A stretch of 63,348 nt of DNA, counting the filler, from Kipferlia bialata (taxonomy: Eukaryota): the NCBI GenBank assembly GCA_003568945.1. It is 4 parts of 4 records of this genome, joined end to end, with 100 filler letters (N's around TTAATTAATTAA, not from the genome) between each part and the next. Parts side by side here need not be neighbours in the genome. Positions count along the whole stretch, not along the records: positions 59,504 to 63,348 come from BDIP01000283.1; 3 more parts are not named here. The stretch is one strand, 5' to 3'. Below the pieces are notes generated by a model, which did not search any database, was not told the DNA's origin, and worked only from the letters and a program-made list of their open reading frames with translations. Made by a program: the position numbers and the translations under genes. How positions within the stretch are numbered: the stretch's first letter is position 1; each line of letters starts with the position of its first letter. Below, piece after piece: positions 1-63,348 of this stretch.

Positions 1-4
1 GGGG

Positions 5-52: not shown

Positions 53-81
53 TGTATATACTACACACAATATGTACTGAC

Positions 82-10980: not shown

Positions 10981-11310
10981 GGAGTATCGATATCTATTGA
11001 AAAGACGGGCTCACTGAATGCGTATTCTCTGGCCGTTCAACTTAGACGCTCATTCACACTGACGCGTAGAGGATTAGACTGATTGAACCAGGCCTCACTC
11101 AATCACACACTCAATCCTTACTGATACTAACCTCTATTATGGAACATGGAATCTCTCTTGAATAACGGGATCATCATATAATCCTGAATAACGGGATCAT
11201 CATAACGGGTTCATCAACAATACAATCTCGCTAGTCTAGCAACACTTCTTCCACATCTTCCTGTGCAGGTGGTGTGCTGCCTATAGGTGTAGACTCTTTC
11301 TTGCCTCCCC

Positions 11311-11684: not shown

Positions 11685-11829
11685 CTGTTGGTGGGATTGA
11701 GGGGATTGAGGGGCGAGGGGTGCCAGCGCGAAGAATTAAGTTAAAAGAGGGGGGGGGGGGGGGGCCAAAAAAAAATTTTGGGTTTNNNNNNNNNNNNNNN
11801 NNNNNNNNNNNNNNNNNNNNNNNNNNNNN

Positions 11830-25680: not shown

Positions 25681-26050
25681 GGGGTTGTCAGTGTATTTGT
25701 CCCCAGGCTGAGCTCTGACAATGTGTGAGAGAGATCAGTCCTTTTGGGTATATTGTTTCATAAGAGTGTGTGCGTGTGTGCTGTGTATAGATACATCAGG
25801 TTTCATTTATTGTGGTCTCCTGGCATATTGAGCACATATCCCCTACACCTTCTGTTCAACGAGGGAGACGATGTAGATGAAAATTCACAATCCTGTGTTT
25901 CTACCTCCGATGCATCGGCGTGACAAGCATCAGTATTGAGTATGAGTATTGACTACGGACAGCTGTCTGCTGGGAAATGGGCCATCTCAGTGACAGAAGC
26001 CTTAGCACTGTCTCTGGTTACTATAATACGGTGGTCTACCCATTCCGTCC

Positions 26051-27977
26051 TCACTCGATGTCGCTGTCTATCGAGTCAGCCTCGGTGTCAAACGTAGACT
26101 CATGCACCTAAAGGTGAGGAGTGGCACTCTAAACAGAGATATGGTGTGTAGTCAAGTGAGAAGAGACAAGAGAACACTGAAGCGACTGCGACATCCTCCC
26201 TGTCCCCACCTCGTACTCGTCCTCCTCCAGTTCAGACCCGGAGTCCACAAGGGTCTGGCCAATCTACACGGTCAGGGAGGTGATGGAGAGGGGGTTAGTA
26301 GCAGAAAGAGAGACTGCAAGACCGTACCGGGCTAGCCATGAACTCTGCTGTCATGCCTGGGTTGCCATCGAGCAGTAGGTGGATGAGAGAGGGCATAACC
26401 TCCACTCCGTTGATGGTCTCCCCACCCCTGGGGTCAGGCTATCCGTACTGAAATATTCTGTATATATGTAACCTGTTTGACCATCACCACCCCGTACCCT
26501 GTGAATGAGGCCAGCTCTACCAGGCCCTGCTCACTCAGCTCATTCCTAGACAGGTCTATGCCCACCAGCTCCTGTAGACCCACCAGGTGCTTGCGGATAA
26601 CCTGGGTGAGCCCGGGGGTCGCAACACTATGGTGACACAACAATGCAAGTAAACTGTGAACAGTACATATACATATCCTGTACCTCTACAATCCTGTCTG
26701 GCAGACCACATGATGCCAGGGCCAGCATGGTCATGTTGTCCATGGACCCCACACACTCCAGCACTGTGGGGCCATGGGCCTGGGGGTGGGGGTGGGGGTG
26801 GGGAATAGGGGATAGAGGGAAGATAGTGTGACAGATATTCAAAGTGTTAGGTAGAGGTACAAGGAGTGAGACACACTACACTATGTACCTCTCCGAAGTT
26901 GTTCTTGTTCAGAAGCAGAGTCTCCAGGCCCGTGCTCTGCCTATTGTGAGGGGGAGCGTATGAGAGAAATCAACAAGAGACAGGTGCACTCACCTCAGTG
27001 TGGTGATGAGAGCATTGACAGACCCTTCGGAGTCGATGCCTGGGGTTGGAGGATATGCATACTGATATACAAAGAGAGATAGAGGGCCGTGCCTGCCTCC
27101 GACAGGTCCAAGAACTCTAGCTGGGACAGAGACACCCACTCAGACAGAGAGGAGAGGGCCTAGGGGTGAGGGGTCTTCATCGTGAAGTGTGAGAGAGTTC
27201 CCGGAATCAATGTCCGTTTGACTGTCAGTGGTGACAGAGCTACGATCCACCCACCTCCTGTGAAACCAAGTGTCCCCCTCCCAGAGATATGGCTGATAGT
27301 ACCACACCACTCTCCTTCAGGGCATCAAGAACATCACCTGGGGGGAGACAAGAACACTGCAGACTCACCCTACCCTCTGACAACAAGTATGGTGACTCCC
27401 CATACCTGAGATGGGTGCGTTCCCTGTCATGTAGAGCTGGGTGACACAGGGGGGCAGGGCACGGCAGATGGTGCAAAGGGTCTCTGTCGACATCTCGCAG
27501 TCACTGTGGTCAGAGCACGTGGATACATAGAGAGGGGGTTGTAGTGGAAGACTCTGTAGCCCCACCTGATGCCGAGTGTCGTAAGTGCTGTCAAGGTGGG
27601 AAGGACTGCTGCCAGGGCAAGGCCTCCCTCGTCTCCCATGCCGCACCGGCTGAGAGTCAGAGACAGGAGAGAGAGAGAGAGAGAGTATGTCACCCACCCC
27701 ATCTGCAGGGACAGCACTGTGCTGGGCATGTGGGCAACCAGGGCTGCGGCACCTGCAGGGGTCAGGGGGTTCTCCTCCACATTCACATCCTCCAGTGTCA
27801 CCATGGAGCCTAGGACGCCACCCAGGGCCTAGGGGTGAGGCAGGGCAAGAAGGAAGGGAGAAGAGGAGCTGGGGCATGATAATTATGTGACATATACTGA
27901 CCTCAGCTCCCACAGCGCCAATGTTGTTCTCTGGCACAGAGAATATCATAAGGTTGGGCCCAATGCCGTTCTCTGAC
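26051..27977 (-). CDS. RNI-like leucine-rich-repeat protein with acidic tail (RanGAP/NLRC3-like), 5' truncated
   Basis: Repeats NNIGAVGAEAL, LEDVNVEENPL, LETLLLNKNNFG, LVGIDLSRNELSEQG, LIHLLLDGN. Tail ELEEDEYE..SDIE*. Confidence 0.85.
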
Positions 27978-28155
27978 TGTGAGTGATGACAGTGTGTGTT
28001 ACATAGGGGGGGGGGGGGGGGGCACCCCCCCCCACCCGCCCCNNNNNNNNNNNNNNNNNNNNNNNNNNNNACGGGAATCTCTCTCTCTCTCTCTCTCTCT
28101 CTCTATGTATATATATATATATATATATGTATATATCTATCTATCTAACCCCCAG

Positions 28156-40142: not shown

Positions 40143-43100
40143 ATGAGCAAGAGGGAGAGGGACTATGTCCCAATGGAGCGAGACCTCCCGAAGCGGTATG
40201 TCTTAAGTTGTCTGTCTGCTTTCTGAAAGTGATTGTTCTTCGTGACATACACACATACCTTATCTCTCTCTGATGAACCAAGGCGTGAGCCAAGCAGAGA
40301 GTATGGGGACCGGTACGATGCGCCTGCTGATCGCGACAGAAGGTATTCTTAAAGCCATATTGTCGTGTCAAGTTGGTATTGGTACTGGTCTAGTATATGC
40401 TCGTCTTCCATCTTACCTCAGAGGTGCCCCTAGATATGAGGATAGGCCCCCAGTGAGAGACGAGCGGAGGGCAAGCGACCGCGGGTGGGTGCTGATTGAA
40501 CCTCTCGTCATGTATCACCCCTCATATTTGTGTGACGATCTACATTTCCTACATATGTCACCCCACCTTACTCAGGCCCCCTCCCCCCCGCAGTGCGGAG
40601 AGGCGTCCCTCTGACGCTGTCCCTCGCAGTGACCGTGTGTATGGTAGAGAGGGCGACAGAGGGTGAGTGGTAATCTCGGTGGCTTCTCCAAATGTGTACT
40701 GTATACCCACCCACAGGAGGTATGAGGAGAGAGAGAGAGAGAGAGGCTATGCCAGGGAGGAGCACAGGGCACCCCGGGCAGAGGACCACCGCAGAGCTCC
40801 TCCTCAGGACTCAGGGTACCATAGAGATTATCATAGCTATCATAGCGAGTATGGGTGGGTCAATGTCAACGCTTGTATACGGTAGTCTTCCTTTCCATCA
40901 CACTCTGTCCCATATATTCATGATTGGTACTACTCCTCTTTCCCGTCATCGTATATCTGCTGCTCCCTGTGTCCCCCTCTCACCCCAGACAGCCTGAGAG
41001 GAGAGAGGCCCCTAGGGAGGTGTACAAGGTGGAGGGCAGGGAGTACTCCACCACCAGTCAGGCCTACAGACAGGGGGAGAGAGAGGCCTCCCGGCTGGAC
41101 GACCCCTGGAGAGAGGACATCCGCAAGGAGAGGGAGAGGGAGAGAGAGAAGACTACTAGGCCGGCCAGGGTGGAGTACAGAGAGGAGCCCCGACGCGAGA
41201 CCAGGCAGCCCCAGGTGTATGCCAGGGAGGAGATGCGGGTAGAGAGGAAGCGTGTCCCAGTGCCATACCCAGTCAGAGAGGAGAGGCGCGAGGCCAGGCC
41301 TGTGGAGTACAGACGTGTGGACCCTTACGCCAGGGAGGGTGAGAGACTGCCCCCTCAGGAGTACAGACGGGAGGAGAGGGAGAGAGTGGTGGAGCGCACG
41401 CCTGTGGCTGTGAAGAGGGAGAGGGATGACAGAGGGTGAGTAACAGTTTGATGGTACTTTGTAGTGTGATTGTTTCGTGGCTCTCCCTCTGTTCCTACTC
41501 CCTAATGTGTAGGTATGAGTACAGGAACGGTGGAGACCGTCGTGCCCCTCCCCCCGAGTACAGAGAGAGGGGCCCAGAGAGAGAGAGACCTCGCCACGAT
41601 ACCCGTGAGGTGGTGTATGTCAGAGAGCGCCCTAGAGAGGTTGTGCATGAGAGAGACAGACACAGGGAGCCTGGGTATGGGAGAGAGAGAGTGAGGGAGA
41701 TGCCAAGGGAGGTTGTGTACGAGAGAGAGAGACCTAGAGAGGCTGGGTACGAGAGAGATAGGGAGAGACCCAGGCAGGCAGGATATGAGAGGGAGAGAGA
41801 GAGACCCAGAGAACCCGTGTATGAGAGTGAGAGGCCCAGAGACACTGCCTATGAGAGGGAGCGGTCTAGACCTGTGAGCCGTGAGAGAGAGAGGCCTGCC
41901 GAGCCCCGGTACGAGAGGCAGGGGGAGAGAGAGAGAGAGAGACCTCGGGAGATGGTGCACACAAGGGAGAGAGAGATGCCACCCAGGGAAGAGAGGAGAG
42001 ATGTGCGTATGGAAGAGCCCCGCAGAGATGAGAGGAGGCCTGAGGCCCCTTCCCCCAGGGTCAATGGACGGGAGCCTGTCAAGAGGGAGGGAGAGAGAGA
42101 GAGGGAGCCTGTCAGGGACCAGTCCGCCCGGTCCTCCCCCCAGGACCGTCCTGCCTCCAGACCTGCCCAGCCTAGGGTGTCCCTACCCGACAGAAGGGGT
42201 GGGTACCAAGGGGGGGCCAGGGGTGGACATGGGGGGCAGAGGACAGCGGGGACAGGCAGCCTGGGTGGGTGCATTGGTGTCTATCAATACAACTGTAGAT
42301 CTGTTGCCTATTATACTTCTCATACACTAATATGAAGTTTATTGCCAGCCTCCCTCACCCCAGCCACCAACTGCTACCCCCTGCAGATAGAGGAGGGCAT
42401 GGAGTGGATGCTGTACGGAGTCACATTCGACTGCCCCAAGGTGGGTGTATTATGTGCACAACGTGATAGCACGCCTTCCACCCCCCTCACCCTCAGATGC
42501 CCCCCAAGGCCATGGCCGGGGCAGGTCTCAGGGCAGCCATCCTAAGACGGTGGCTGTCGGAGCTAGTCACTGAGGTCCCCAGGCACCTGGTGGAGTGTAC
42601 CGAGTCCACTGTGCTGTGCAGGCACCCCCTCACATACAAGGTACATATACATGGGGATACTGATACTGATACTGATACACCCCCCGACATACAAAGTGGG
42701 GATGTAGGGGTCAGGGTGTGGGTATGACACTGCCATGTCCCCAAGTGGGGCCTTATTGGTATCTAACGTACATCCCTCCCCCTACTGACCCCAGGACGAG
42801 TCACGTGTCTGCAAGGGAGACGTCAAGACCTTCAGCTTCACAGACAGGAGGCAGGGTGCCGTGGACATGCGTGTCAAGGTGTGCTCCATCTCCAAGGTCA
42901 ACATCAACGCCACCGTCGCTGCCCCCAACGAGTCCTCCGAGCAGGCCATCTCCCTCCTCAACAGAGTCACCCACCTGGCACTCAGGACAGGCCATGAGTA
43001 CCAGCGGATTGGGTCCAAGTACCTCGTCTCCAGAGTCACCAGCAAGGACCTGGAGCCCAAGATCAGGGGCAGGCTGGGCCGGATAGTGGACAATGAGGCG

Positions 43101-44295
43101 TATGTGCACCGGGCCTTCACCCTTGCCGTGCAGCCCACTGTGTCTGGGGCCATGATGGTGCATGAGGTCAACCACCAGATCAGGATGAACACCAGCATTG
43201 ACAGGATGGCACGGTCAGGGCAGTTACCATCACCTGAGCAGGCCGCCAAGGACCAATACAGGGTGCTGCCCTGCTACGACCAGGGCACCAACTACCTCCT
43301 GATGGGCATCGAGGTGGGTGTGTATAGTGTGTGTATGTTTTTATTTGTACGTATGTATGTACAGGTGTGTCTAAGGGTACACACCAGTATCGCCCTCTGA
43401 CATCCACAGGAGAAGGCCTTCGATGAGCGCATGACAGATGACGACACCGACACACGGACATTCAGAGAGTACTACACCACCAAGTTCGAGAGACCCCCTA
43501 GGGCCCCAGAGATGTGAGTTGTGTTCGTATACTATATGTGTTCAAAGAGTAGCATATGATTGTATGTACCTTTGGATTTTCAGTGTATCCCTTTGGTAGA
43601 ATGGATGTGCCTCCATGCACCCTGTCATCCTCCTATCATGCCACTCACTGTGCATATGATAGACTGACACTGACACTCAGGGTGTACATCTACAAGTGGT
43701 GCAGAGACAGGGTGGCCAAGATGCCGAGCCATGTCAACATGGTCAAGACACGCCTCAAGTCAGGCCACGACGCATGGCTCATCGCTGACCTCTGCTTCCC
43801 CGTGGAGCTGTCTGCCTCTGTCAGAGGGGCACTGCCACAGGTGTGTACAGTGTGTGTATATGTGTATGGATGTGTATATGTATATGGTCCTCCCCCCCCC
43901 CCACCCCCACCCCCAGGTGTGTGGTCTCAAGCCAGATGGCAAGCTGAAGTTCATGTCGTCTCTGGCCTCTAGGCTGGCCTCTGTCAACAGTGAGAAGGAG
44001 CACGCCATGCCCCCAGCCGATGTGCTCAAGGCATGGGGCGTCACAGTCGACAAGAGGTGTGTATTGAGACGATACCCTGCCATTCTTCTGCCCGTGTCAC
44101 TGTTCCTCACCCCCCAGGGCTCTGATGGTTGAGACCAAGAGGCTGGACGAGCCCAGGATCCAGGTGTCTGGGGCTAGACAGCAGGTCACGGCCAGAGACC
44201 TCAGGCGCAGCATGCAGAGGATGAGGCTCTCGGGGGTACGGGGTGTATTGTGTACACACTCTCTCAACCTTGGTACCACAGTCCTATGAGTGTAT

Positions 44296-44335
<40 letters not shown>

Positions 44336-46135
44336 ACCCCCAGGTTGAGCTTGACTCTCTGGGTCTCTTTGCATCTGACAGGGCAGACAGAAGGGTGGTG
44401 CAGGAGTTCGAGAACGCACTCCCCAGGGCCCTAGAGACTGTTGGCATCAGGGTGATGAAGAGGCCGCAGCTGGTAGTGCTGCCTAGGTCAGTGTATACTG
44501 GGTGTCAACCATATGGCACTTCCCAACACAACAGACTGTTGATGGATAATAGTGTATATATATGTATGGATACTAATCTTATGTACATATCCACTCTGAC
44601 ACCCAGGGGCAGTGGACCCCGTTGGGAGGATGACGTGATCAATGTCGTGACCCAGGAGAGACACAGCGTGTGTGTGTTCATGGTACGTGGCAGTGATGTT
44701 AATATCCTTCCCCCTCCACCTGTACCCACCCCCCAGGTAGACGACAACTCCAAGGACCTGTATGCCCTTATCAAAGAGGAGATCAGCGGCAGAAAGGGCA
44801 TACCCACCCAGTTCCTCAACACAAAGGTACATTCATTCACATAGAGACACCCTATATGGACTGTACTGATGCATGGGGTGTATACCCATACCCACCCCCT
44901 CTGACCCCAGGTGCAGAGTGGTCTGCAAAGGCAGAGGGGCATGATCACCAGCACCCTGGCCACGCAGATAGGCGCCAAGCTGGGGTACGGCAGAGGAATC
45001 AGTGATATATACTCTGATTTGTAAGGGTTTAGAGTGGCTTGCTGCATGTGTTTCTCAAGGTTGTTTATCCCTCCCCCACCCCCAGCCACCCTGTCTGGCA
45101 GCCCACTGGCACTAAGGACCTCAACGCCCTTGTTGTGGGTATTGATGTGTGGCACGGGCAGGGCAACAACGGGAGGTCCATTGTAGGCTTTGGTGGCTAT
45201 GACTTCAGAGGGGCAGACGGTCTGCACACCTCCGGGGGTCTGTCGGAGCACCCTGCCAAGCAGGAGGTGCTGTCCCACATCCAGGCAGGCACATACGAGC
45301 CCGACACCGGCAGCGATGCCCTCTACCACTTTGTAGACAGGTGCCTAGGCCTCAGAGCACCGGAGGGCAAGGCCCCTACGTGCAAGCCCCCCGACACTGT
45401 CATAGTCTTCAGGGACGGCACCTCCCAGGGGCAGCTGGAGGCGGTGCGCAAGCAGGAGCTGTCGCAGGTTCATAGGGCCCTGGCCAAGTACAGGCTGGGA
45501 GACGGGCCTGACCTCAAGCCGGTGCAGGTTGTGTACTGTGTGTGTGTCAAGCGGTCTGGTATCAGTATGGTGGCCACCAAGGAGTCGGACTTCCAGGCAG
45601 CAACAGACGGGAGGGCATTTGACCCCAGAGACGCCACCAACGCACCCACAGGAGCCGTGGTCATTGACCCCAGGATACTCAGGTACCACACCATACCATA
45701 TCATAGTGTCATAGGGCCAATGTGATGTTCTGATGTATTCTCATGGGTGAATCCCCCTCACCTTCAGGAACCCCGAGACTGAGTTCTTCCTCTTCTCTGT
45801 TGGCACCTCCCCCTCCACGTCTAGGGCCGTGCACTACCACATTGTGGAGAGTGGTGGGATGGCCAGGAGGGACATCTGCAACATCGCATACAACCTGTCC
45901 TTCCAGTACTTCAACTGGCCAGGTACGCTTGAGTCTCTTCCTCCACTGACTATAGAAAGAATCTATTATTGTATTATCATGCATCATTCACCCCCCAGGC
46001 CCTGTCCTTGTGCCGGGTCCCATCCAGTACGCCACCAAGGCAGCCTATCTCGCAGGGGAGTGCTTCAAGGGCCTCATCAGCGATGAGGCCAAGCAGACTG
46101 GGCTCTACTGGCACAGGGGCCTGGCATACCTCTAG
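40143..46135 (+). CDS. Argonaute family, PIWI-like protein with ~500 aa R/E/P-rich N-terminal extension
   Basis: N domain TNCYPL..WMLYGVTF; PAZ TFREYY..LIADLC; MID LYALIK..GIPTQF and QIGAKLG; PIWI VVGIDVWH, IVFRDG, FQYFNWPGPVLVPGPIQYATKAA; ends LAYL* at 46133-46135. First acceptor uncertain. Confidence 0.92.
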
Positions 46136-46399: not shown

Positions 46400-47183
46400 A
46401 TGGCCCCAGTACCCTCTCGGGCTGTCCGGGTGACGCCTGAGGGTGCCTGTTCACTGCTGTACCTCCCCACCACTTCCCTCCCCACCTCGTGTCACATATC
46501 TGTAGCCTTGGCCCTAGGGTATGACAGTATGGAGAGCCTCCCCGTGCCGTCGGCAGTGGTGGCCTCCCTCCTACCCTCCCTGACAGTGCCTGGCACCCAG
46601 GACACCCTGAGTGACACTCTGTCCAGACTGGGGTGCAGCATAGACAGTGGGGCTAGTCGCGAGTTCCTCTCCATATCGTGTGAGTGTCCCTCCTCCTCTG
46701 CCCCTGCTGCCCTGGCCACCCTGACCCATGCCCTCGAGCATGCAGGGGCAGCCCCTCTGGGCCAGGGTGTGGTGGATGAGGCCTCTGCCGCTGTGTGCCA
46801 TATGGCTGGGTCAATGGCCTACCAGGGCAGAGAGTGTGCTAGGGAGCTGGCCCTGGGCCACCTACTCCAGCACTCAGACCCCAAGGCACCCCCCCAGCCC
46901 CTGCCCTGGGCCCTGGGTCCCCTATCTGATGTCTATCTGGGGAGCCGGTGCGTGTCTGCCTATGCTGTGACGGATAGTGTGAGACGTGCTGCCGGTGGTG
47001 CCTCCTACGTCGTGTCTGGCCCTGCCTCTGTCAAGGCAGAGATGGAGGAGACATTCAGACACCCAGCACTAGACACTGATGCCATGGACCCCTTCCAGCA
47101 CCAGAGGCCCCTCCCGGCCCTCTCCCCCCCTGACCATGCACCTGGGGTGGTGTCCATGGGCTATGGAGTTATTGGACAGGAAG
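46400..47183 (+). CDS. Possible inactive M16 peptidase / MPP-alpha-like protein, first exon
   Basis: ISVALALG..LSRLGCSIDSGASREFLSISCEC..ALATL loosely resembles the M16 N-domain. No HxxEH. Downstream exons lost in the gap. Confidence 0.4.
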
Positions 47184-47257
47184 GTATGTGGGTGCAGCCA
47201 GTAAAAATACTATTTTCCCCACATCTACATGGGCTCCATGTGTATATGTCTTGCCAC

Positions 47258-47306
<49 letters not shown>

Positions 47307-47508
47307 CCGCCCCGCGCCCCCCNNNNNNNNNNNNNNNNNNNNNNNNNNNNNNNNNNNNNNNNNNNNNNNNNNNNNNNNNNNNNNNNNNNNNNNNNNNNNN
47401 NNNNNNNNNNNNNNNNNNNNNNNNNNNNNNNNNNNNNNNNNNNNNNNNNNNNNNNNAACCCCCAAACCCCCCGGGGCCCCCCCCCCCCCCCCCTTCCTCT
47501 CCCATCAG

Positions 47509-48921
47509 GTGTGGCACCCAGCCCACGGTGGATAGGAGCCAGCTCGACATAGACCTCAGCGACCCATTCAGGACCAGGTACAGCGTGAGTATATATATGT
47601 GGTATATAGCTCTAGTGCAGTAGTGTTTTTCGTAAATCTGACTCTGGGTCATTATACGCCACCTCTTCTCCATGTCATTATGACTCTATGTTACTCTCTG
47701 TACCGGGCCTCACCCCAGGATATCAGAGCAGCTGGCCCTGGCTAACTCCACCAAGGACGACCTCGACAGGTATATGTATAGTATATGGGATCCCCCCCCC
47801 CACCCAGTTCATCTTCACCAACACCCATACTATGCAACTGACATGTAGGTGCAATGCTGAGAACGTGGGCAAGCTGACTCAGATCTGGGAGCAGCTGGGT
47901 GAGTGCTGTATCACATCTATGTCACCATTCAGTGTGTGTATGACACAGATGTCCTGTTCATAGCAGTGTATGTGTTCCTTGATGCTTCTGTGTGTTTGTG
48001 TATATACATAGATATGTATATGTCTATGTATGTGTGTGCCTCCCTCATATCAGGCTACTCCAACCAGAAGATCCGTGCCATGTCGGACCTTGCCACCCGC
48101 ATCACATCCTCAGGGGTGGCCAAGGTATGGGTGGATGCACATAGATAGAGAGAGTTGTATACGTATATATACATACATATATATGATATACATGATGCAT
48201 CCTCAGGGGTGGCCAAGGTATTCGTCGAGACAGTGCTATGCACACACATATATGGCACTGTGCAATATACACACGTGTGCTGCCTCATCGCCAGGTGGAG
48301 CCCAGGGAGAAGGCTGATGTGATCAGTCTGCTGCGCAATGCCACCATGGAGGCCGACAAGAGAAGGGCCAAGGCCCAGGTGAGTGGGGGTATCTCTATAC
48401 ATGTATCTCTATACATGTGTGGCGGGAGAGACTCTACCCCCCCTCTGACCCCAGTCCATAATATCCCAGCTCAAGGCCCTCTGGACCGAGTTTGGCCAGC
48501 ACGCAGAGGCCGTCCAGGCCCAGGAGGTGCGGGGTTGTATGTGTGTGTATTTGGACCACTTCGTGTCATGCTCCAGTACTGTGTCCCCCCCTTCCCCCTG
48601 TGTCAACCTCAGGAGTTCCAGCACAAGTTTGCCGCCAACCCGCTGTCTGACTCCACCCTCAAGGCCATGCACGACCTGCTCAGCGAGTGGCAGGAGAAGA
48701 AGTGAGTGCCCCCTAGTCTCTATATTACTATACCAGTGTCTTCATTGGCACCCATGCCAGCCGTATGACCCCCCCCCCCCCCCCCCCCCCCCCAGTTCCC
48801 CCCCCCCCCCCCCCCCTTTCTGACACAGGTACATGCTGGCTGTGCTCTCTCTCTCCCCCTCTAACACAGGTTCCAGCTGGCTATGAGGGGTCTGACCTCG
48901 ACGCCTCTCTGTGGTCCATGA
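47509..48921 (+). CDS. Helical/coiled-coil protein 3' part, weak MAP65/Ase1-like repeats
   Basis: Phase-consistent exons: KLTQIWEQLGYS..RRAKAQLKALWTEFG..LLSEWQEKKFQLAMRGLTSTPLCGP*. Confidence 0.5.
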
Positions 48922-49049: not shown

Positions 49050-49442
49050 TATAGTTACTATATCATACTACAATATACTATATTTATAATACAATCGTAA
49101 TCCAAGGGCATGGGAGGCACACTAGTATCACTCCTCAAGCATGAAGGCCCATAAATCAAGGGACCATTCAGCTGTCACCATTGAAAGCACACATGCAATG
49201 TGTGACACATGCTAATGAATGACGTGTGGTCATGACACACCTATGATGCCCGTCACGGCTTTATCATCTCCCGAACCTGGCCTTCTATACACTGGCCTAG
49301 GTAGCCAGAGGAAGCTACTCTCTGTTGTCCACTGTATACATATTTCTGTGAACGAAATTCAGTCTCTCTCTCATTATCATCTGAGTGAAGTCGCACTCTC
49401 TGTTATCTATTATATATGTTTCTATGTATCTCTCTCAATCAT

Positions 49443-51712
49443 CTACGTGAAGTCGCACTCTCTGATGTCAAACAGGTCCTCAACTGGGGCACGGGCCTAA
49501 TATCAGTCTCAGTCACGTATACGAATATATGTATATTAGTTAAACTGAATATGCAGGTACATATAATGTCCTCAACTGGGGCCTAGAAGTAAGACAATTA
49601 TTGAATTAGAGGATTAGTTTCATTAATTCTCAGCTGTGAGGTAGTTGGACCAGGCCTTTCAATATGGCATGGTCTCTTATCATCTCATATTGATAATTAT
49701 TCTATATCATGAATATAATATCACATATTGAAAGAATACCCACCTTCTCAGCTGTGAGGTAGTTGGACCAGGCAGGGCCGAACCAGGAGGAGCCAACTGA
49801 GGGGTCAGAACCAATCAATCAATCAATGAATCATCAATAATTAGTCAATCAATGAATCAAACAGAATATCAGTAAAACGTAGATATCCAATATGTATACA
49901 GGTTATGTCCTATACACTACATACCTAGCACGTGGTGTGTCAGTGCCAGTGATGCATAGCGGTCACACTCCTCAGCCGAGAACAGGTCGAGGTAGGCCTG
50001 GGGTGACTATGTATAGACGTAGTAATAGATGTGGAGAATGAATACACACATATATATATATCCACATATATATGTGTACACACCTTGAGTTCCGAGTGGT
50101 ACTCTGTGTATAATCTCTCTCTCTCCCTCTCTTTGTACACATCTATATATAAATATATATATACATACATACCTTCAGTTCCGAGTGGTACTCTGTATAC
50201 ACACACTCTCTCTCTCCCTCTCTTTGTATACATCTATATATATATATATATACATACCTTCAGTTCCGAGTGGTACTCTGTGTGTATAATCTCTCTCTCT
50301 CCCTCCCTTTGTACACATCTATATATATATATATACATACATACCTTCAGTTCCGAGTCGTACTCTGTATACACACACACTCTCTCTCCCTCTCTCTGTA
50401 TACATCTATATATATATATGTATAGATACCTTCAGTTCCGAGTAATACTCTGTGTGTATACTCTCTCTCTCTCTGTCTGTCTGTCTGTCTCTGTCCCTCT
50501 CTCTCTCTCTATATATATATATCCACATATGTATATATATATATACCTTGAGTTCCGAGTGGTACTCTGTGTATGATGGCAGCAGCACACTGGTGGCAGT
50601 GCCCAGTCTGGCCCTAGAATCAGTAAGATCAGATACACAAATATGAATGATAGAGGGTATAAGAGTATATATACATGAAGTGATAATGGTGGCAGTCCCA
50701 GTCTGGCCCTAGGGGTTAGGGATATACATGAATAAATGTATATATACAAAATATATACAATAAGAATATACTATAATGGAAGTACTGGTGGCAGTGCCCA
50801 GTCTGGCCCTAGGGGTTAAAGACATATATACATACCAGTATAAACATACACACACATATATATAAATATACATATATATTCATGTATAAACCCATTTGGA
50901 ATTTCTGGTGGCAGCGGTCCTGATGGTATGGCATTATCACATCAGATGATATATAAATATGTGTAACCAAGATATGCATTACACATACACGGCCTTCTGG
51001 ACACATATACAACTCCACTTGTCAAAGACCTAATTGATACCAGATATAACAATTCCTGACATATACGTATATATATATATATTGGTTGTGTATATATGCA
51101 TACATGTATATACCTGATTGATACCAGGTAGCTAGGGGCACCCCAGCCGTGGAGCTTGGACAGGGCGCAGTGGAGTCTGGGGGTCAATGACAAACAAAAC
51201 TAATTAGATCAGTAGGATAGCAATACTAAAGAAACAGTAATATTTCTATTATCAAGGAAACGTTGACGACAAGTGCTCAGAACAGAGTGGAAACAAGCAT
51301 TGCATGGATGTATGAATTATGAATTATGAATTATACCTTGTGGATGCCAAATAAATAGAATTGGATATCATCTAGTCCACGTGAAAAGCACACACACATA
51401 TATACAAATATATCAATGTACACATGTACACATGTATGAATATATCCATATTGACTAGTCACGTACACCCACTGCTTGGCCAGATGGGATGCCTTACGGG
51501 CTGTCTTGATATCCACCTAGGGTGAGATACATGGTACACATTATACACACATAGCAACAAGGAGAGAGAGATATGGAAAGGTAGACAGGAAGAGAGTTAG
51601 CTTAGAGAGAGAGAGAGATAGAGAGAGAGTACGTACCCCAATCACCACTCTCTCTGAGTTGGCCTCCAGAGTGGCAATGTCTCCATGCATGGGGTCAAAC
51701 CTAGACCCTTAA

Positions 51713-51757
<45 letters not shown>

Positions 51758-54664
51758 AGATCCCCTACCGTATGTGTCTCTGACCCTCTCTGGCACTTCA
51801 AGGGCACCAAAGAGCATGTCGGGGGCCTGGGGGTCAGATATATATATATATATATATATGTATGTATCTATATCTCTCTCTCTCTATATATATGTATCAG
51901 GGAACCAAACAGTATGTATAAAGAGCATGTCGGGGGCCTGGAGGTTGGATATATCCAGATTATGTAGACAATACTCACATACCAATGCAATAACTGTGCC
52001 CCACAGATAGAAGAACAACACCCATTGACTCTCCCTCTCTTCATACTTCAGTATACATACTTATACAAATACTATACCTGAGCCCCACACCCGTTGAGGT
52101 AGAAGCACTCCTCCTGCTGCAGTTCATCCCAACTCTGCTGGGCAATCCTAGGGTTAGGATAGAGACATATATATATTATATAGAAACTCCGATACTACAA
52201 CATTTATGTTAGGTCTATCCCTATTCCCAACTCTGCTGGGCAATCCTGACTGTTAGAGATTGGAGAACAGTAGAACAATACTTTGTACTGCGTTAAATGT
52301 ATATACCTTTGCTGGGCAACCCTGGGATGAGTCTACAAAAGTATATATGTATATATATATATACACGTAGAAATACATATATTCATATATGTCAGTACCT
52401 AGGTGGTGTAGCTCTGGGTCGATCCAACATAAACATATCATTCAACAAACTCTTGACCATGCATACTCCCTCTCTCTATGCACACTCATTACATATTCAT
52501 AGTATTGTATGAGTACCTAGGGGGTGTAGCCACCAGCTCTGGGTCGATTGTTGACTTCATGAGGTGGTAGTGCACGGGATAGGTGAACCTAACATAAGGG
52601 GGTTGGGGGAGAGAGAGAGAGAGAGAGGTGGTAGTGCACGGGGTAGATGAACCTATGGTGAGACAAGAGAGAGAGAGAGAGAGGTGGTGGAGTACGGGGT
52701 ATTGGGCTTGTACTCACTTTGCAATGAGCTGCTCGGCACTTGTGACATTAGTATATACACACATTCATAAGCATATATACACACATTCATAAGCATATAT
52801 ACACACATATCACTCATGTATGCATCTCACATCCTTGGAAAGGTGCATCCATAGAACATCTTAATAATACTCTACTCACTTTGCGATAAGCTGCTCGGCA
52901 CTTGTGACATCAGTGGGTATCCTAAACAGCAGCTGTGAGAAGGGGTGGGACAGGCTGACAGCACCCACGTCGCCCTCGGCAGTCACGCCCTGGGGGTTAG
53001 TATGCAATTACTATAAATATATATACAATTATTAATCAATACAATTGTACTATATGAGTGGCATTAATGCATCACTCGGCAGTCACGCCCTGGGGGTTAG
53101 GGAATAGAAAGGAGAATACCACATTGATGAATACACCGAACTACAAACCTACTTCTGCCAATAACAAGTCGAAAACGGAGCATACCAGAGCTGATACGTA
53201 TATCATGTATTTACACATACATTCACACATATAGTATATACACTATATATATACATATATAGTATACTATATAATTAGTATATATATACTATATATATAC
53301 TATATACTATATACTACATAATTAGTATATATATAGATATATATACTATCTACCTGAGGGAACAGCCTCCAGAAGGGTACATAGGATGGCATGGGGGCAG
53401 AGGGCTGGTGCTGCAGCTTGGCTTATGGTTAGAGGAATTAAAACTACACGATATCAATCCTAAAACATATGATGACAACATATGATTCGTCATTATACAT
53501 TTCCATATACATACACATGTCCTACATACCTGCCAACAGTACCCTGGCTGCGCATAGCCCGTTCACCTCCTGCTCACATCTGAAGCCAAGCCACTCTCTC
53601 TACATATATATACAGTTATATATATTGTATATATATTATCCGATACCTGCCAGGAGTACTCTTGCGGCACAGAGTCCAATCACCTCCTGCTCACATCTGA
53701 AGCCAAGCTCAGAGTCAAAGGGCGAGATGGCAGTCTGGAGGCCGCCTGAGGGTAAGTTATAATCAAACATATGATGTTAAACTGTTAAAAGATACACTAC
53801 TAGTATACAATTCAAGTAGTACGTATGAATGAACTGCTATATACATCAGAGTCAAAGGGCGAGATGGCAGTCTGGAGGCCTCCTTTATGTTAGATGTGTA
53901 TAGTATATATATTGTACATAGTATATAATGGTATATATATACTCGTATAGTAGCCTATACACATCAGAGTCAAAGGGCGAGATGGCAGTCTGGAGGCCGC
54001 CAAACGGTAAGTACCCACTGTGTATATTATCTGTCCATATTAATACATATATACATATACATATACGTACCAGCACAAGCTGGCAGTCTCTCCAGCAGTG
54101 CCACCCCCACTGGGAGGTACTCATACTATATACATATATGGATGTATATATGAATATACACTGCTACGTACCTGCCCATGCTGGTAGCCTTTCTAACAGA
54201 GCTACCCCCACTGGGAGGTTGGAGCACAGGAAGGCAGGCACTAAGAGTGACACGGGGTGGGAGGCACAGCCAAAGCCAGTGTCCCTCTCCATATCCATGG
54301 CACCGCCTGATATAAGGGTGTAGAGAGAGAGAGAGAGATGGGTATCCATATCCATGGCACCACCTTGGTTGAGAATAGTATATATGAATAGAGAGGATAT
54401 AATTAGGGTATAGAGGGAGAGACAGAGAGAAACAGACTGTCCCTCTCCATATCCATGGCACCACATGATATAAGGGTGTAGAGAGAGAGAGAGAGAGAGA
54501 TAGGATATTCCCCGTATATCCATAGCACCACTTAGGTGTCACCAACCGTACACAGCACTCGCACATCCTGTACACATGCTATACACATCCTGTACACTAA
54601 TTCATAGATATATACACGGTCCATATATACATATACCCACCCATGTCGATGTTGAGCAGCAGGC

Positions 54665-54701
<37 letters not shown>

Positions 54702-57700
54702 GAGACATATAGTACAGTATACACTGTATACATATACATACACCCACCCATGTCGATGTTGAGCAGCAGGCTATATATGTATATATATATAGTACGTAAA
54801 GACATATAGTACAATATACACTCTCTACATGTCCACCCACCCATGTCGATGTTCAGCAGCAGGCTGTCCATGACCTCCTCGCCACAGCCTGGATATTAAG
54901 GGTGTAGGGAGAGTATTAAGGGTGTAGAGAGAGTATTAAGGGTGTAGAGAGAGAGAGAGAGAGAGAGGGAGATATCCACTCATCACACACCGTCTCCTAG
55001 GCTTGTGCTCTCCATGTCACCAGCGTTCTCTCTCTCTCTCTCTCTCTCCTTGTCTCTCTGGGCTAGGCCTGGGCTCTCACTCACGCACCTGAGGGTGATA
55101 TGCGTATACTATGGTGTATATCCTACTGTCACAACTAACATTAAGTTGTTGAATCTCTTATCTAAGCGATGACCAGTAGTGGACACCGATATACTCTTAC
55201 CTTAAGTATATATTTACACGTACTATTCATACCTAGAGTTATCGAATCTGAGCGATGCAGCGGATGACCCCACTGAGCCATAGGTGGGGGTGTCAACGGA
55301 GAAGTCAACAAGATAGACAAGTCCTAAGGGTTGGATATATTTATAATAATATATGTGTATATATATATAGAGAGAGAGAGAGGGAGATGTGTCAACGGAG
55401 AAGACAACGAGGTAGACTAGACCTGGTGTGAGAGAGAGAGACACACACACACACACATATATATAGATATAGATATATATATATGTGTGTGTGTGGTGGG
55501 GTGTCCACGAAAAAAGTCAACCAGGTACACACATACAAGACTAAGGGGTTGGAAAGCGAGAGCGAGAGAGCGAGCGAGAGAAGGAGAGAGAAGGAGAGGG
55601 ATGAAGTCCAACACACATACCCATACCTCTCCCACAAACTTGATACGGGCGTTGCAATCCATTCAATATGTACAAAATTACCTCTCTCCTCCAGTCTTGA
55701 TATGGGCTCTGCCTTGACACCTCCCTCATATACTTATACATCTACCTATATATATATATATATATAGATCTCTATACATGTCTATATATATGTTTGGTAC
55801 ATATATATACACTGACCTCTCTCCTCCAGTCTTGATATGGGCTCTGCCTTGACACCTCCCTCATAGTCCACAAGGAGACGGTCCTAGAGTGAGTATATAT
55901 ATAGATATGTATACATATATATATATATACAGAGAGAGAGAGAGAGAGAGAGAGATGCCTGACCCTCCCTCATAGTCCACAAGGAGACGGTCCTAGGGTA
56001 AGAAGATATATAGATGAGTGAGTATATAGAGTACATGAATGAACATATAGAGCCATAGGGCAGATAGAGAGAGAGAGAGAGAGAGACAGGGACTAGTATA
56101 TACATATATCCATATATATGTATATGTATAGAGAGAGAGAGAGAGAGAGAGTACCTGTGGCAGCAGAGGGACACTGGCCAGGGCAAGGGCCCTGAAGAAG
56201 GGGGTGGGCTTGTACCTTCACATTAGAGAGAGAAACAGAGGAGGGGAAGAGAGAGGGGGACATTTGAAGAGAGAGGGNNNNNNNNNNNNNNNNNNNNNNN
56301 NNNNNNNNNNNNNNNNNNNNNNNNNNNNNNNNNNNNNNNNNNNNNNNNNNNNNNNNNNNNNNNNNNNNNNNNNNNNNATACGTACACTGGTATGCCACTG
56401 GCACTGAACGCACTCATCATGAACAGGTTCCAAAATACTAATGTATGTATATATACTATTTACACTATATAATCTATACGTAAAATAAACTACTTCATAT
56501 ACATATACTATAATATATACACGTACACTGGAATACCGCTAGCACTGAACGCACTCATCATGAACAGGTTCCATGCCCCAGGGGACAGATAGACCTCTCG
56601 GGTGCCAGGCTTGACAAGACGGCATCTAGAGTTAGATGAAATATATATGGAAATATAATTGAATAAATAATAATAATAATATAGTGATAGACTACACGGG
56701 TGCCGGGCTTCACAAGTCTACACCTTGGGTTTAGATATGTACCTGATATTGTATACATATGGAATTGATAAAAATACTCATTGCATATTCATGAATATAC
56801 CTGTTGTGTGCCCCTCTGAACACTCCGGCACAATACATTCTATACTATCGACAATATATATATACACACACCTATATGTATATATAACCATTGGTACCTG
56901 TTGTGTGCCCCTATGTATATGGTAATGTAATTACAATTATATATATATACATAAATACCTGTTGTGTGCCCCTCTGAACACTCCGGCACTCTTGGCAAGC
57001 TCAACTGGGGTGAGAAAGGTGTTACACATGTGAATAGTCTTCAATACATATGTATATATATAAATATACTAGTACTCTTGGCAAGCTCAACTTGAGGCTG
57101 AGAGAGGTGGTAAATATGTACAGTATCTTAATATAGACAAATATATTCGCTCCGTATGTATGTATAAGAGTACTCTTGGCAATATATATTACAAGGACGT
57201 AAGTCGGTAATAGAGTCTTGACATATCGTATTACAATACACATATCCACCGTACCATGGCAGAAGGGTGCAGGATGGGCTGCAGTCTGATATGCAATATA
57301 TACAATTAATGTATCTTTATATATTATAATTAATAAATATTATTATAATACTAGCCGTACCCATTGCCGCAGGGTGCAGGATGGGCTGGAGTCTGATGTG
57401 GTCAAGCACAAGGGAGGACTGCCTGGCAACCTATGATATTAGTATAAATGTATACACACTCATATATATATATATATATTGAGAGAGAGAGAGAGAGAGA
57501 GATATCAAGCACCAGGGAGGACTGCCTGGCAACCTAGGAGTCAGTGATATAGTATATATACTATAGTAAATATATGGGGAGAGAGAAATCGGTAGAAGAG
57601 ATCTGGGATACCTCATAGGTGGTTGATCCCAATGCATAGAGTATATATACATAATCAATATTACATAATAATGTATAGTATAGTTATATACCTCGTAATC

Positions 57701-59014
57701 ACTATTACATATTAATGTAGAGTATAGTTATATACCTCGTCTGTGGTTGATCCCAAGTTACCGGCCACGAACATCAGGATGCGCCTTAGTGTTAGGTATA
57801 CTAGTAACTAATGTATATACATACAATACACTAACATACTATACTAGTAGATACTAGTAGATACTAGTAGTACATATACATACTACGAACATCAGGATGC
57901 GCCTACTAGTCAGGTATACTAATAACTAATGTATATACATACACTCATATACTATATTAGTAGTAGTTCATACATAGAGCATCAGGATGCGCCTACTAGT
58001 CAGATACATGCATGATCATACAAACACTAGTATAGTATTATAAAAACTAGGTTATATATATACACAAACCTCTGTGCCACCAGGCTCTGTAACAGGATGA
58101 ATGTAATGCAAACATCAATACATTCTTATGTCTCTCTCTACATATATTAATATCAATATATATATATATATATATACCTCTGTGCCACCAGGCTCTGATG
58201 AAGGCAGACCGGGCAGATATCAATATATGTATTTAGGTATATACACAAATATCAATATATATCAATATACATTCATATACGTATGTCCATTATGTCTATA
58301 TGTATCTATACACTAACCTCTGTGCCACCAGACTTTGTAAGAGGATGAAGGCAGACCGGGCAGCAGCAGGCTCAAGCTTATCAACCTCATCTGGAGTTAG
58401 AGACAAAACAAATCACTGAAGCAGTGTATAGAATGCGGGTATCTATGTGATAACCAGGGGAATGCATTTCAAGCTTATCACCTCTGCGTATTAGAGAGAT
58501 ACACAATACTAAGAGTAGAGAGAGAGAGGTGAGGAAGGGGGGGAGAGAGAGACAAAGGACTCCACTCAACTACGAACAGCAGGAGTTATAGTAGCAAATA
58601 TGAAGACGTATAAATAGATACATTGTATAGCCTGAATTACCTACGAACAGTAGGTACGGCAGGACTGGCTCTCCGTCCTCAGTCTCGCACATGTACGTCT
58701 CAGACGGGCCTGGGGGTAAGATGGACACATATATCATAGAGAGGGGACGGTAGAACATGTACGTCTCAGACGGGCCTGGAGGTAAGAGGTATAAAGGCAT
58801 ATACACACAGATATGATAGGGAGGAAGAATAGAGAACATGTACGTCTCAGACGGGCCTGGGGGTAAGACTTCACATTTATAATGCCACTCTATGTACACT
58901 TATAAATCTATATTCTTTCAATGTCACTCAGTCTACATATCCATACCTCCCTCGATGCCTGTGCTGGACTGGTGGCATCCATCACACACATACATATATA
59001 TCCATCCATCTAAC

Positions 59015-59055
<41 letters not shown>

Positions 59056-59240
59056 ATGCATATGTATATATACCTCCCTCGATGCCTGTGCTGGACTGGT
59101 GGCATCCATCCATACACATGCATATATATATATATATATATATCATTATATATCTATATACATATACATGTATGCTGCTGTATATACCTCCCTCGATGCC
59201 TGTGCTGGACTGGTGGCAGGCAGCCTCAGACAGGGCATGT
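49443..59240 (-). CDS. Putative Crinkler/RHS-type NTPase + restriction-endonuclease-fold protein, >25 exons, 5' truncated
   Basis: Walker B-like YLLFVDEVDKL, ILMFVAGN, SGIP; C-terminal FYLNGCGAQAPDMLF..VVIGVDIK..WFGPAW; stop at 49443. Continuity across the gap at 56278-56377 is assumed. Confidence 0.6.
50083..50570 (-). repeat. ~87 bp tandem array of exon end + 5' splice site (5 intronic copies plus the exon)
   Basis: Minus-strand CAGAGTACCACTCGGAACTSAAG|GT (minor variants) near 50083, 50172, 50258, 50345, 50429 and 50547 with (AT)n/(AG)n spacers. Confidence 0.9.
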
Positions 59241-59447
59241 CTGGGGGTGAGATTATATAGGATAACTATATTGTGGGAGAGAGAGAGAGAGAGAGAGAAT
59301 GATATATCAGCCTCAGACAGGGTATGTCTGGGAAAACAATAGAATGCCTGGCATAGAGAGAGGGGGGGGGGGGGGGCAGGAGACAAAGTTGTTGTATAGA
59401 TATNNNNNNNNNNNNNNNNNNNNNNNNNNNNNNNNNNNNNNNNNNNN

Positions 59448-59459
59448 TTAATTAATTAA
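59448..59459. other. Artificial scaffold linker
   Basis: TTAATTAATTAA within Ns. Confidence 0.95.
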
Positions 59460-59503
59460 NNNNNNNNNNNNNNNNNNNNNNNNNNNNNNNNNNNNNNNNN
59501 NNN

Positions 59504-59549
<46 letters not shown>

Positions 59550-60351
59550 TGGTATACATATATGCACACACTCAAAAACATATACATATATATATATTCG
59601 TATATATATTCGAGTACCTTATCTCCACCCCATTTACAACCACCCTCGACACAGGGGAAGGGGGGACAGGGGGTGCACACTGATTGGTGGTTGAGGGACG
59701 AGAGGCATCCCTTCTAGAGGTGGTAGGGGGTGGTCTTACAGCTCTCTCAGCACCAGATGACACCCTTCTTGGCCTAGTGGTACTTCTAGGCCTAGTACTG
59801 GTGGATGGGTCCATCCGTGTAGGCCTGGGTGATACTGTCATCTGGACTGAACACTCAGGGGTGTAGTTGGACGGGTTTACTGACAGTTAGAGGAGGTTGA
59901 CTAACTAGAACAGTTCATATGGGCAATCGGTACGGCAGGGGGGGGATGGGGGGAAAGAGAAACCGTTGTCTGCTGTTGCAACTTACATATCTTTAACTCT
60001 TCCATGTTATCTGAAGATATGACGCCGAAAGCAGCTGCCATCACGTGTATATAGTCAGTATGTACCTCTATTCTAAATGGCAACGGGTATTACAGGGGCT
60101 ACAGGATTTCACACGATGATAAGGTAGAAGCGAGTCACCTTTGTGCTTGTCGTCTGCACCCTTAACACACGACCATGACAAAAAGCACATCTCTGATTGT
60201 CGAGACACATATCGTGTAACCAACCCAAGTATAATCATATACAGTGTGCTAGATCCATCCAACTCATCTGAATGATCCAATTACTGTCCTTACTATTGTC
60301 CATATACATGATCTCTTGGAGTGATTTCACTGAAGTATGCACACAACGTAT

Positions 60352-63127
60352 CTATTCACTCTGCTCCTCCAGTGTCACCAGATGCACCACCTTCTCATCA
60401 TCGTCCTGCTCAATAACAAGGAGGGCCTGATCATGAGAAGACAGTGATATGTAGAGATAAGATCTAAGAACAAACCTCACTCCACTTCCTCTACATATAC
60501 TATACACTCTTCGGCTGTATTGCTCAATCACAAGGAGGGCCTGGTGGTGATTATTCCATAAATCAACATCATATCACCCCATTTACTCCAAGCCATATAC
60601 CATGTTCTACTATACATTTGATGAATATATGTCTCAGTCACAAGGAGGGCCTGGTGGTGAGAAGACGTGTGTTGCACATAAACATCATACACTGTTATAT
60701 TTACAGACTTACACACATAATAATCCACATTACTACACTCATATGCTGTACACTCCAATACCTCATCCCCACATATGGGCACCAGGTGGCAGCAGTTGGC
60801 ATGGTAGATGTCAGCGTCCTCCTGGGGTGTTAGACAATTGCACTACCTACAAAGAAAACCTTCATATATATAACATTTACTGATTGACAATGTCAATTTG
60901 ACATAGTGAAATTGATCAGATCAACACATTCAACTCTCACTCACCGCAGGTATCTCCGTGCTGTGGTGTGCCCCTGTCAGCGAGTCCCAGGTGGCTATGC
61001 AGTTACAGTAGTCAGGGTACACAATGTGCCTACTGTTAGACACACCATGAAATGTACACTCTTTCACTTTCAAACGAGTACACTACGTGATACACCATGT
61101 GGGAGGGGTATCTTACATCCTCATTAATGTAAACAATCAAAGTCAACACTACATGTGATACTTAGTAAGAAAGGAACGATGTATTTACGTGCAAATATGT
61201 ATCCTACCTCCCCATTAGTGCAATATCGACCGTGTGGTTGTACGTCTCCAGTGCAGGCAGGACCTCCCACCCATGGGTGTGTGACTGACAGGTCTCTGGG
61301 GTGTACACAGTGTGCTTGTTGCCATACATAAAGTGGACCCTTCCCTCACACATTATGGCACTCTGCATATCTGTCACATCCACTTCAGTAGGGGGGGAGG
61401 GCAGGGGGGAGAGGGTGCGTGTGGATACGTCATACTCCCACAGGAGGGGGGAGGGGTACTCCTGGAAGGTGCTCAGGATGATCTGGGGTTGGAATACATA
61501 CTTGCATATACAAACCTACACTATTAGAACCCCGAAATGATAATATATACACATGGGATCGAGAGGTTACATACATAACCTGATTGATAAAAAATTAAAC
61601 CCACCTTGTCCTCCAGAGCACATGATGCCATCATGTCACCCTACATATATATTCATATATCTTAAACCAATATATTATTACGCATTCATTCATTCTATAC
61701 TATTCATTACTATGGAAATACACAACATGTATAGCTCAACACACCTTGTTCTCCAGAGCACATGATGCCATCATGTCACCCACAGTGTCTCTAGGCAGGA
61801 CACCCGACTGGACCTCCCACTCCCTGAGGGTGAGTAAGAGCTATAGAAACAAATATATATGTATATATATATAAGTATTAAGGACTAATCCTGATGATAT
61901 GACTGGACCTCCACTCCCTGGGGTGGGTGATGGGAATAGAAACACATATACATATGAATATATGGTGAGAAGTGGTGTTAATGCACGTACATGCCTGGAC
62001 CACCCACTCCCTGCGGGTGAGGGATAGCTACACATATGCACGTATATAAATATATATAAATACCATGATACCACATACATCATCACCTTGAGTCCAGTGT
62101 TAAGATGTACACACTCTCCCCAGACACCACAGCCACCTTGCCATTCCCAATGTAGTGGGCCTGGGGTTAGACACATATATATACATAATACTGAAATAAT
62201 GACATTGACCTAAAATGGACCTTTCGGTTAATCTCACTTCACAGAACCATGATTTTCATATATCTACAAATACTCCCATATACATACAAACACTCTCTCA
62301 TATATCAATCATTATATACCTGCGTGAAATTCCCCTGGTCTGATGGGTAGTGTGGTATGGGACACTCCACTGCCTCACACACCACCTCTCTCTCTCCCTC
62401 AGGTCCATCTCTTAGAGACAGAGTGACACCACCGGTGATGATCATATTGTCACATACTGGATCAGATATGGTAAAGTAATACTATCCGATATCTATCACA
62501 GACAGAGGGACACCACCTGTACAGACCTTACTATGTACAGTATCAGATACAAAGAGATATACTTATAATATACATATGAAGAGACACAGACTGACACCAC
62601 CTGTACTGACATTGGCATGACACACTGTATCAGTATATATGTGGCATACATTGTATTATTACTAAGTCTTTGGGTGCATAACTCCCTGTATACTGACTCT
62701 GTCACCATGTGATGTGTCGAGCAGAGATACACACATTCAGATACTGATACTGACTCTGTCACCACACGCTGGGTCGCATATAATGTGAGAATTGTAATAT
62801 ACACCGATAACACAACTAATACATAACTGAACACGATACTAAGATACAGAGAGAGAAATGACGGGAGAGAGAACTAGAGCGAGATTACCTATCCATGACA
62901 CTCCATAGACACATCCACCCATAGACTGTGTCAAACACACACTTTGATCATGATACATAGATACTTATACCTGTACGTGACACCCCGAACAAACACACAT
63001 CACATAATCAGTATCAATAATGAAGAGAGACTATTAGAGAACATACCTGTGCGTGATACTCCAAACACACACCCATCCCCAGTGGGGGTGACAGATGCAA
63101 GGGAGACGAAGTCGTCAAGGTCAACGC
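60352..63127 (-). CDS. Divergent kelch-like beta-propeller protein, 5' truncated
   Basis: Exon chain VYILTLDSREWE..LWEYDVSTRTLSPLPSPP..EGRVHFMYGNKHTVYTP..GWEVLP..ATWDSLTG..EEQSE*. Confidence 0.6.
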
Positions 63128-63348
63128 CTAGGGGGGAGAATATGGAGAGGAGGGGGATAGAGAGAGAGATGCAAGGGAGATGAAGTCATCAAGATCAACG
63201 CCTGGGAGTGAAGAGAGAGAGAGACGTTCAAGTTATAGTAAATATAGAGAGGGTAATGATAATGTAAGGGGGGATGAGTCATTGAGGGCAACACATAGGA
63301 GGGAGACTTGGGAGAGGGAGTCAGGTATCTCTGTTACAAAGGGGGGGG

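Follow-up and report, generated by a model that had tools for sequence, protein, structure and literature searches.

Silently diverged copies of exon ends recur inside the long introns of Kipferlia bialata genes

The long introns of Kipferlia bialata genes contain partial copies of the exon ends beside them, and these copies differ from the exons mainly at silent positions. Within the window, that is the whole 63,348-nt stretch of DNA analysed, a search anchored at exon junctions returned 89 such copies, termed echoes here, at 333 junctions, where 0.4 were expected from other exons and 1 lay on the wrong side. The echoes probably derive from a coding-diverged homolog.

Results

Gene models were built and curated by hand, and the anchored search was confined to this window. 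For one gene, P0004, the model was compared with the public protein, and 24 of 26 exons matched in full, one in part and one not at all. Echoes occur in ten gene pieces, an HDAC gene and an Rpn10-like gene among them (the latter identity weakly supported, E 0.048), which bears out the suggestion of the initial annotation that the pattern recurs and is not specific to one gene. Pfam searches with 12 single exons gave one weak HDAC match, one weak unrelated match and nothing else. Ten control gene pieces with short introns showed no echoes once a single match was dropped. This match, which had lost its GT, and a low-complexity match at exon 15435 were removed, leaving 87 echoes for the statistics. 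Without anchoring, 66 of 74 direct, non-low-complexity exon copies reached the adjacent junction; four of the others ended 5–12 nt short and four lay further in, and there was one inverted copy.

An echo has an exon part of median 24 nt (14–62 nt), situated a median of 98 nt from the used junction across a spacer of about 80 nt and 31% GC. Echoes lie inside introns beside their own GT or AG and carry one splice site only; this GT or AG is lost in 11 of 87. Their offsets ignore the reading frame (modulo 3, 32/32/23), and the site is as strong as the used one in 26/46 donor and 18/41 acceptor echoes. Across 161 introns, length is about 114 nt plus 103 nt for every echo (r=0.89), and an echo is present in 38 of 58 introns over 150 nt and in 2 of 103 shorter ones. 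Echoes may be stacked at one junction. The initial annotation had described graded stages of divergence, which holds at exon 63047-63127 but not as a rule, since across 21 stacked junctions divergence is greater in the outer echo at nine, smaller at seven and the same at five.

The regional split is sharp. Echo-free genes (1-11785, 23300-28040, 38847-46135) have introns of about 60–140 nt and 47–57% GC, and echo-rich genes (13000-20000, 49400-63348) have introns of about 260–345 nt and 34–41% GC. Two multi-exon genes at 82-4058 (minus strand) and 42364-46135 (plus strand) look, judging by motifs, like an NRPS-type enzyme with adenylation, carrier and reductase domains and an Argonaute/Piwi protein, respectively. 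Within 28521-28953 and 50050-50577, echo-plus-spacer units of about 80–90 nt are repeated four to five times; these arrays show signs of secondary unequal exchange.

Left out of the gene chains were exons near 17283-17162 (unclear acceptor), 20801-20520, 34270-34622 and 46400-47577, a one-exon ORF at 35248-38745, and one intron of the 16 kb region. At 17372-17107 (minus strand) the best-reading exon follows an acceptor-like motif ending in AT, not AG; alternatively, an echo has here turned into a 28-nt exon of its own, and an intron would then have been gained from it. A candidate 16-nt micro-exon at 34251-34370 (plus strand) is duplicated with both splice sites, the copies being 85% alike, and the pair are possible mutually exclusive or tandem micro-exons. 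In a genome otherwise dense in introns, the ORF at 35248-38745 (plus strand) has none; it exceeds 1,160 codons and contains internal repeats rich in Ser/Thr/Val.

The echoes described in the initial annotation belong to a minus-strand gene, P0001 ('hypothetical protein KIPB_001879 [Kipferlia bialata]'), and the exon that they copy lies on a separate scaffold as proposed, within the last assembly piece (59504-63348) and past an artificial linker. The features of this locus are as follows.

59404..59503, no strand: artificial linker joining two assembly records, made up of 12 bases with 44 N on either side, from the sequence
63047..63127, minus: expressed 81-nt exon of P0001, the predicted beta-propeller gene, spliced at both inner sites (spliced contig; translation matches P0001)
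62320..62456, minus: next expressed exon of the P0001 gene (spliced contig)
62457..63046, minus: 590-nt GT-AG intron with two donor echoes and two or more acceptor echoes, spliced out as a single joint (spliced contig, search)
62996..63046, minus: AT-rich spacer from the used donor to donor echo 1 (sequence)
62969..63001, minus: donor echo 1, exon end plus GT (aligned 62995-62971, GT 62970-62969; alignment, anchored search)
62887..62920, minus: donor echo 2, GCVYGVSWI plus GT (aligned 62916-62889; alignment, anchored search)
63164..63203, minus: acceptor echo 1, AG (63203-63202) plus exon start (63201-63167; alignment, anchored search)
63260..63296, minus: acceptor echo 2, decayed, with AT in place of AG (aligned 63294-63260; 22/35 identical)
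62491..62624, minus: two acceptor-side echoes, both decayed, that belong to the next exon (62540-62491, 62624-62582), changes mostly amino-acid-altering (search, alignment)

The exon 63127-63047 ends in TGT GTG TTT GGA GTA TCA CGC ACA G|GT. All three echoes initially reported were recovered as described: donor echo 1 is identical to the exon end at 20 of 25 positions, with four synonymous codons and V>L; the more diverged donor echo 2 at 21 of 28, with three synonymous and three changed codons; and acceptor echo 1 is identical to the exon start at 32 of 35, with GAC>GAT twice and V>I. They score 19, 16 and 30, against maxima of 10 (donor side) and 12 (acceptor side) in 300 shuffles per intron. 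Acceptor echo 2, absent from the initial list, scores 11, a value reached in 2 of 300 shuffles. The 590-nt intron also contains a GDRVS-like repeat pair (62690-62776), possibly very old echoes, whose members are closer to each other and to a piece of another DNA contig than to the present exon.

A structure model of P0001, built from a three-sequence alignment (pLDDT 66), matches Kelch and other propellers in Foldseek (E about 1e-7), and no Pfam Kelch model exceeds its curated cut-off (best 22.9 bits against 70). On this model the product is a beta-propeller protein, and the original label of Kelch-like applies at the level of the fold only. Two paralogs of P0001 were found, at 39% and 42% identity. 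At the other end of the gene (60391-59879, minus strand), the spliced contig has a donor inside the annotated last exon, leading to a further exon with a stop at the joint, unlike the end of P0001.

Contigs of two sequencing runs were compared with the P0001 gene only, for both mis-joins and splice-site use. One contig of a DNA run (X1) spans 61752-63339 without a single difference, at a depth of 447.7 that is in line with its neighbours (449.2 and 473.6), so that the copies are spanned evenly and the mis-join contemplated in the initial annotation did not appear. As run X1 is possibly the source of this DNA, it counts as a second assembly rather than a second sample. A spliced contig from run X2, presumed RNA, has eight GT-AG joints, uses the inner donor at 63046 and an inner acceptor near 63128, and skips every echo in the gene, although contigs drop rare forms. 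Because the DNA contig spans the echoes at even depth and the spliced contig uses only inner sites, the echoes are both genomic and intronic: it is confirmed that the named echoes are real and are spliced out as part of introns. Among the DNA pieces listed, and filtered records aside, 62989-63115 has exactly the depth of that single contig, and a depth excess over 62862-62988 traced to an unrelated piece outside the echoes. Among these pieces, no further contig raised the depth at donor echo 2 or along most of the exon, which speaks modestly against a second locus that matches. No second allele at the P0001 locus was seen in run X1.

Further echoes of this gene and of the neighbouring gene P0004 illustrate the range of divergence.

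61995..62010, minus: acceptor echo of exon 61823-61745, with a second, gapped one near 61903-61966 (search)
61605..61641, minus: donor echo, 36/37 identical, intron flank unrelated-looking (search)
60521..60650, minus: two acceptor echoes of exon 60426-60391 (search)
54071..54118, minus: clearest P0004 echo, 15 codons with 8 synonymous and 1 amino-acid change (search, protein comparison)
53530..53591, minus: mosaic P0004 echo that matches the exon exactly in its far half and differs by 8 synonymous codons and 1 amino-acid change in the half next to the junction (alignment)
56686..56723, minus: P0004 acceptor echo, CRLVKPGTR kept with 5/9 codons recoded (search)

The synonymous bias claimed at the outset is only suggestive from the three named echoes, where 10 of 15 changes fall at codon position 3 (p=0.08), and in the P0001 gene alone (13/23, p=0.19), but it is clear over the window. 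The null for these tests is a local duplication in which the exon changes silently and the echo changes anywhere, rather than one third of changes at each position; simulated neutral echoes gave position-3 shares of 0.41–0.45, with a maximum of 0.556 in 900 runs. In strict alignments of the 87 echoes, changes at codon positions 1/2/3 number 23/14/105 of 142 (0.74), with a pN/pS of 0.145 (bootstrap 0.10–0.21 over 60 junctions). The bias persists without the five most recoded echoes (73/105) and in three genes with outside support for the frame (80/109). P0004 contributes 62/80 and the 13–20 kb gene, with frames from the model only, 25/34; the verdict thus rests on the window as a whole, and chiefly on these two genes. 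Some echoes keep the peptide despite recoding of 8/15, 8/20 or 5/9 codons. In loose alignments, which run into the spacer and take in decayed echoes, the overall pN/pS rises to 0.28, with 0.47 among acceptors and 0.51 in the P0001 gene. Echoes in conserved genes contribute only six changes, and 31 of the 87 strict echoes match the exon exactly and so carry no information on origin.

Position-3 changes are balanced (GC>AT 30, AT>GC 38), whereas those at positions 1–2 run AT-ward (21 vs 8; Fisher p=0.014), as expected if a long period of coding divergence preceded a brief one of neutral decay. Position-3 changes also crowd toward the junction (-0.104, against a simulated detection bias of -0.004, sd 0.023; 0/2000), and the far end of an echo is often identical to the exon. 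Changes vary among echoes beyond binomial expectation (p=0.0004). The intron flanks of echoes score above other introns of the same gene (p<=0.001), and in 22 echoes with at most one change over at least 25 nt the 20-nt flanks are identical at only 230/440 positions, so that the flanks are related but have diverged much further than the exon part. Conversion between exon and echo within a chromosome was rejected by reasoning, as it is unable to bring pN/pS below 0.5.

The kept peptide, the silent divergence and the drifted but related flank are most simply explained by a second functional copy of the gene as the source. The paralogs found are too distant, and a diverged haplotype, possibly from a hybrid, is therefore favoured. 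The silent bias and the junction gradient suggest that one end was homology-directed from a different template. We see an even chance that the echoes are seams left in one step when homology-directed repair copied from a strongly diverged version of the gene concerned, probably that of another haplotype, and then rejoined out of register. Exon and echo versions would have diverged while both were coding, one of them coming from a different functional copy. As only exons would still pair between such copies, a broken end would invade at an exon near its junction and copy through the splice site into the intron of the other copy. On losing homology in this foreign intron, the end would be released and joined to the resident DNA upstream, about one intron-length back, doubling the junction, with the return joining probably made by Pol theta or a microhomology switch. 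Joints would survive selection only where the extra piece ended up within an intron, and the new direct repeats could then expand and contract by unequal exchange into stacks of two to five. The route should give a far part that is identical, a near part that is recoded and a flank that is partly foreign, all three of which are observed. As one genome was compared, the newcomer could be either the exon end or the echo.

It is known from plant splicing that AT-rich sequence reads as intron, and the inner splice site may win by analogy because the AT-rich spacer is read in this way. The most recoded tracts have about 8 silent changes in 11–12 codons, a density that exceeds ordinary allelic diversity, and under the haplotype reading it would take a hybrid, or lineages of great age, to account for them. 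A donor haplotype was not seen at the P0001 locus in run X1, and two metagenome scans contained no relative.

What has been described of K. bialata repair partly fits these steps. Rows of PMC8516963 Supplementary Data 2 list PolQ, five Rad52 and Msh2, with no Ku70 and no PolD3/Pol32 entry, and the accompanying text describes canonical NHEJ as absent in metamonads (PMC8516963, in part). MMBIR in yeast is described as requiring PolD3/Pol32 (PMC4888836, in part), and the missing listing is a mark against textbook MMBIR. The organism was reported as likely diploid (PMC5874029, in part).

A two-step history is unlikely, although it draws the silent differences from the same source and departs from the one-step reading only in the seeding step. 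An old local tandem duplication would seed the echo, and mis-paired allelic conversion or unequal crossover would later refresh the echo or the exon end while the spacer drifts. This would explain why exon parts can be identical while their flanks are diverged yet still related, and it agrees with the whole-unit tandem stacks at 28595-28858 and 50084-50455 and with stacks lacking an order of age. However, frequent recombination on targets of 14–62 nt would be needed, and the far ends of echoes should be decayed and the near ends fresh, whereas the far ends are the identical part.

That the template was a paralog, extant or lost, such as a homeolog after hybridisation or genome doubling, is improbable; the lost-homeolog form of this idea merges with the one-step reading. 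P0001 does have paralogs, and the near-saturated silent divergence suits old duplicates. The grouping of echoes with paralogs, put forward in the initial annotation as a check, was not supported: five of six echo peptides score 30–51 against their own gene and 14–21 against the two paralogs found, the sixth being uninformative. In a weak search, the exon of the most recoded echo matched only its own protein among 36 candidates. The unaltered contig depth over donor echo 2 and most of the exon, among the pieces listed, and the presence of echoes in the Rpn10-like gene also argue against a paralog.

Ordinary local tandem duplication spanning a splice site, with the echo then decaying neutrally while the exon changes silently, is very improbable and was rejected as the general cause in the window. 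It would account for the anchoring, orientation and stacks and for the AT-ward drift at positions 1–2, it is compatible with the named echoes and with the P0001 gene when these are taken alone, and it suits decayed echoes such as those at 62491-62624 and 63260-63294. Its floor is nevertheless a pN/pS of about 0.5 and a position-3 share of about 0.45, against the observed 0.145 and 0.74, and it predicts flanks as identical as the exon part and no gradient toward the junction.

We regard it as highly improbable that echoes are selectively kept as coding sequence for rare isoforms, or that the working junction is hypermutable and the echoes are spared. Many echo splice sites do match the score of the used site and the peptide is often kept, but a single splice site per echo, offsets that are not multiples of three and the lost GT or AG speak against selection, as does the spliced contig of the P0001 gene, within the limit that rare forms drop from contigs. 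Hypermutation predicts a strong AT excess in exons, and the counts of 38 vs 30 fall short of that. Finally, an assembly mis-join of two haplotypes or loci, conceivable in a short-read draft of a reportedly diploid genome (PMC5874029, in part), has a negligible probability given, for the P0001 gene, the read-derived contig that spans the echoes without differences at single-level depth and the flanking exons joined in the spliced contig.

Discussion

The intron architecture described here is real, pervasive in the window and apparently undescribed. No description of the echo pattern was found in the literature searched, which comprised titles and the starts of abstracts, with subscription papers outside its coverage. 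The accessible part of the K. bialata genome paper makes no mention of such repeats and has 0 matches to 'tandem' or 'duplicat'. The parts of the architecture resemble known scars of duplication and template switching, while the signature of exchange between diverged gene copies was unexpected.

Internal or tandem genomic duplication as a source of introns, as outlined in part in PMC3443670 (Gao and Lynch 2009, Hellsten 2011), likewise involves short direct intragenic duplications hidden by splicing. There an exonic AGGT segment doubles and the identical copies make a new intron (PMC3443670, in part). Echoes instead double a junction that was already in place and leave the number of introns unchanged, with silent differences already present between the copies; AGGT does not supply both sites of a new intron, as the inner sites are the ones spliced. 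Compared with neutral internal duplication, echoes share the direct repeat of the junction but, over the window, show neither codon-blind decay nor flanks equal to the exon part.

One-sided invasion has homology at one end and an illegitimate joint at the other. Echoes would have these features, and a short duplication at the seam, in common with FoSTeS-MMBIR (PMC4888836, in part). They differ in that the process would recur at many junctions of ordinary genes with a coding-diverged homolog as template, and in that Pol32 is unlisted. Intron gain by double-strand-break repair in Daphnia, as far as it is described in PMC3443670 and 10.1101/051292, also places direct repeats around an AT-rich insert; echo repeats instead measure 14–62 nt, mostly reach the adjacent old splice site and are silently different. 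Transfer of introns between paralogs similarly moves introns by recombination of coding-diverged copies (PMC3443670, in part), but no matching paralog was found, intron positions are unchanged, and none of the loci searched resembled an echo more closely than the echo's own exon did.

Mutually exclusive exons that arise by tandem exon duplication are whole exons with two splice sites and a synonymous-biased divergence. Echoes share the tandem exon-like copies and the synonymous bias but are partial, with one splice site in place of an acceptor and a donor and without conservation of the frame.

Tentatively, and with somewhat less than even confidence, we propose that long Kipferlia introns are built of modules of about 100 nt, and that every module is the fossil of an exon end, stranded there when deeply diverged haplotypes or species recombined. 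The genome would then archive past outcrossing or hybridisation one junction after another, and this repair route, in a lineage lacking canonical end-joining, would be a main driver of both intron growth and the replacement of splice sites. Echoes give a concrete route to the lengthening of introns, and they pose a puzzle for splicing, in that equally strong outer sites are skipped in an organism whose spliceosome is described as reduced (PMC6679479, in part). In metamonads, neither sex nor parasex has been seen directly (PMC8516963, in part). Should echoes prove to be pieces of diverged alleles, a single assembly would hold countable recombination seams and fragments of lost alleles, and genetic exchange would become testable in metamonads.
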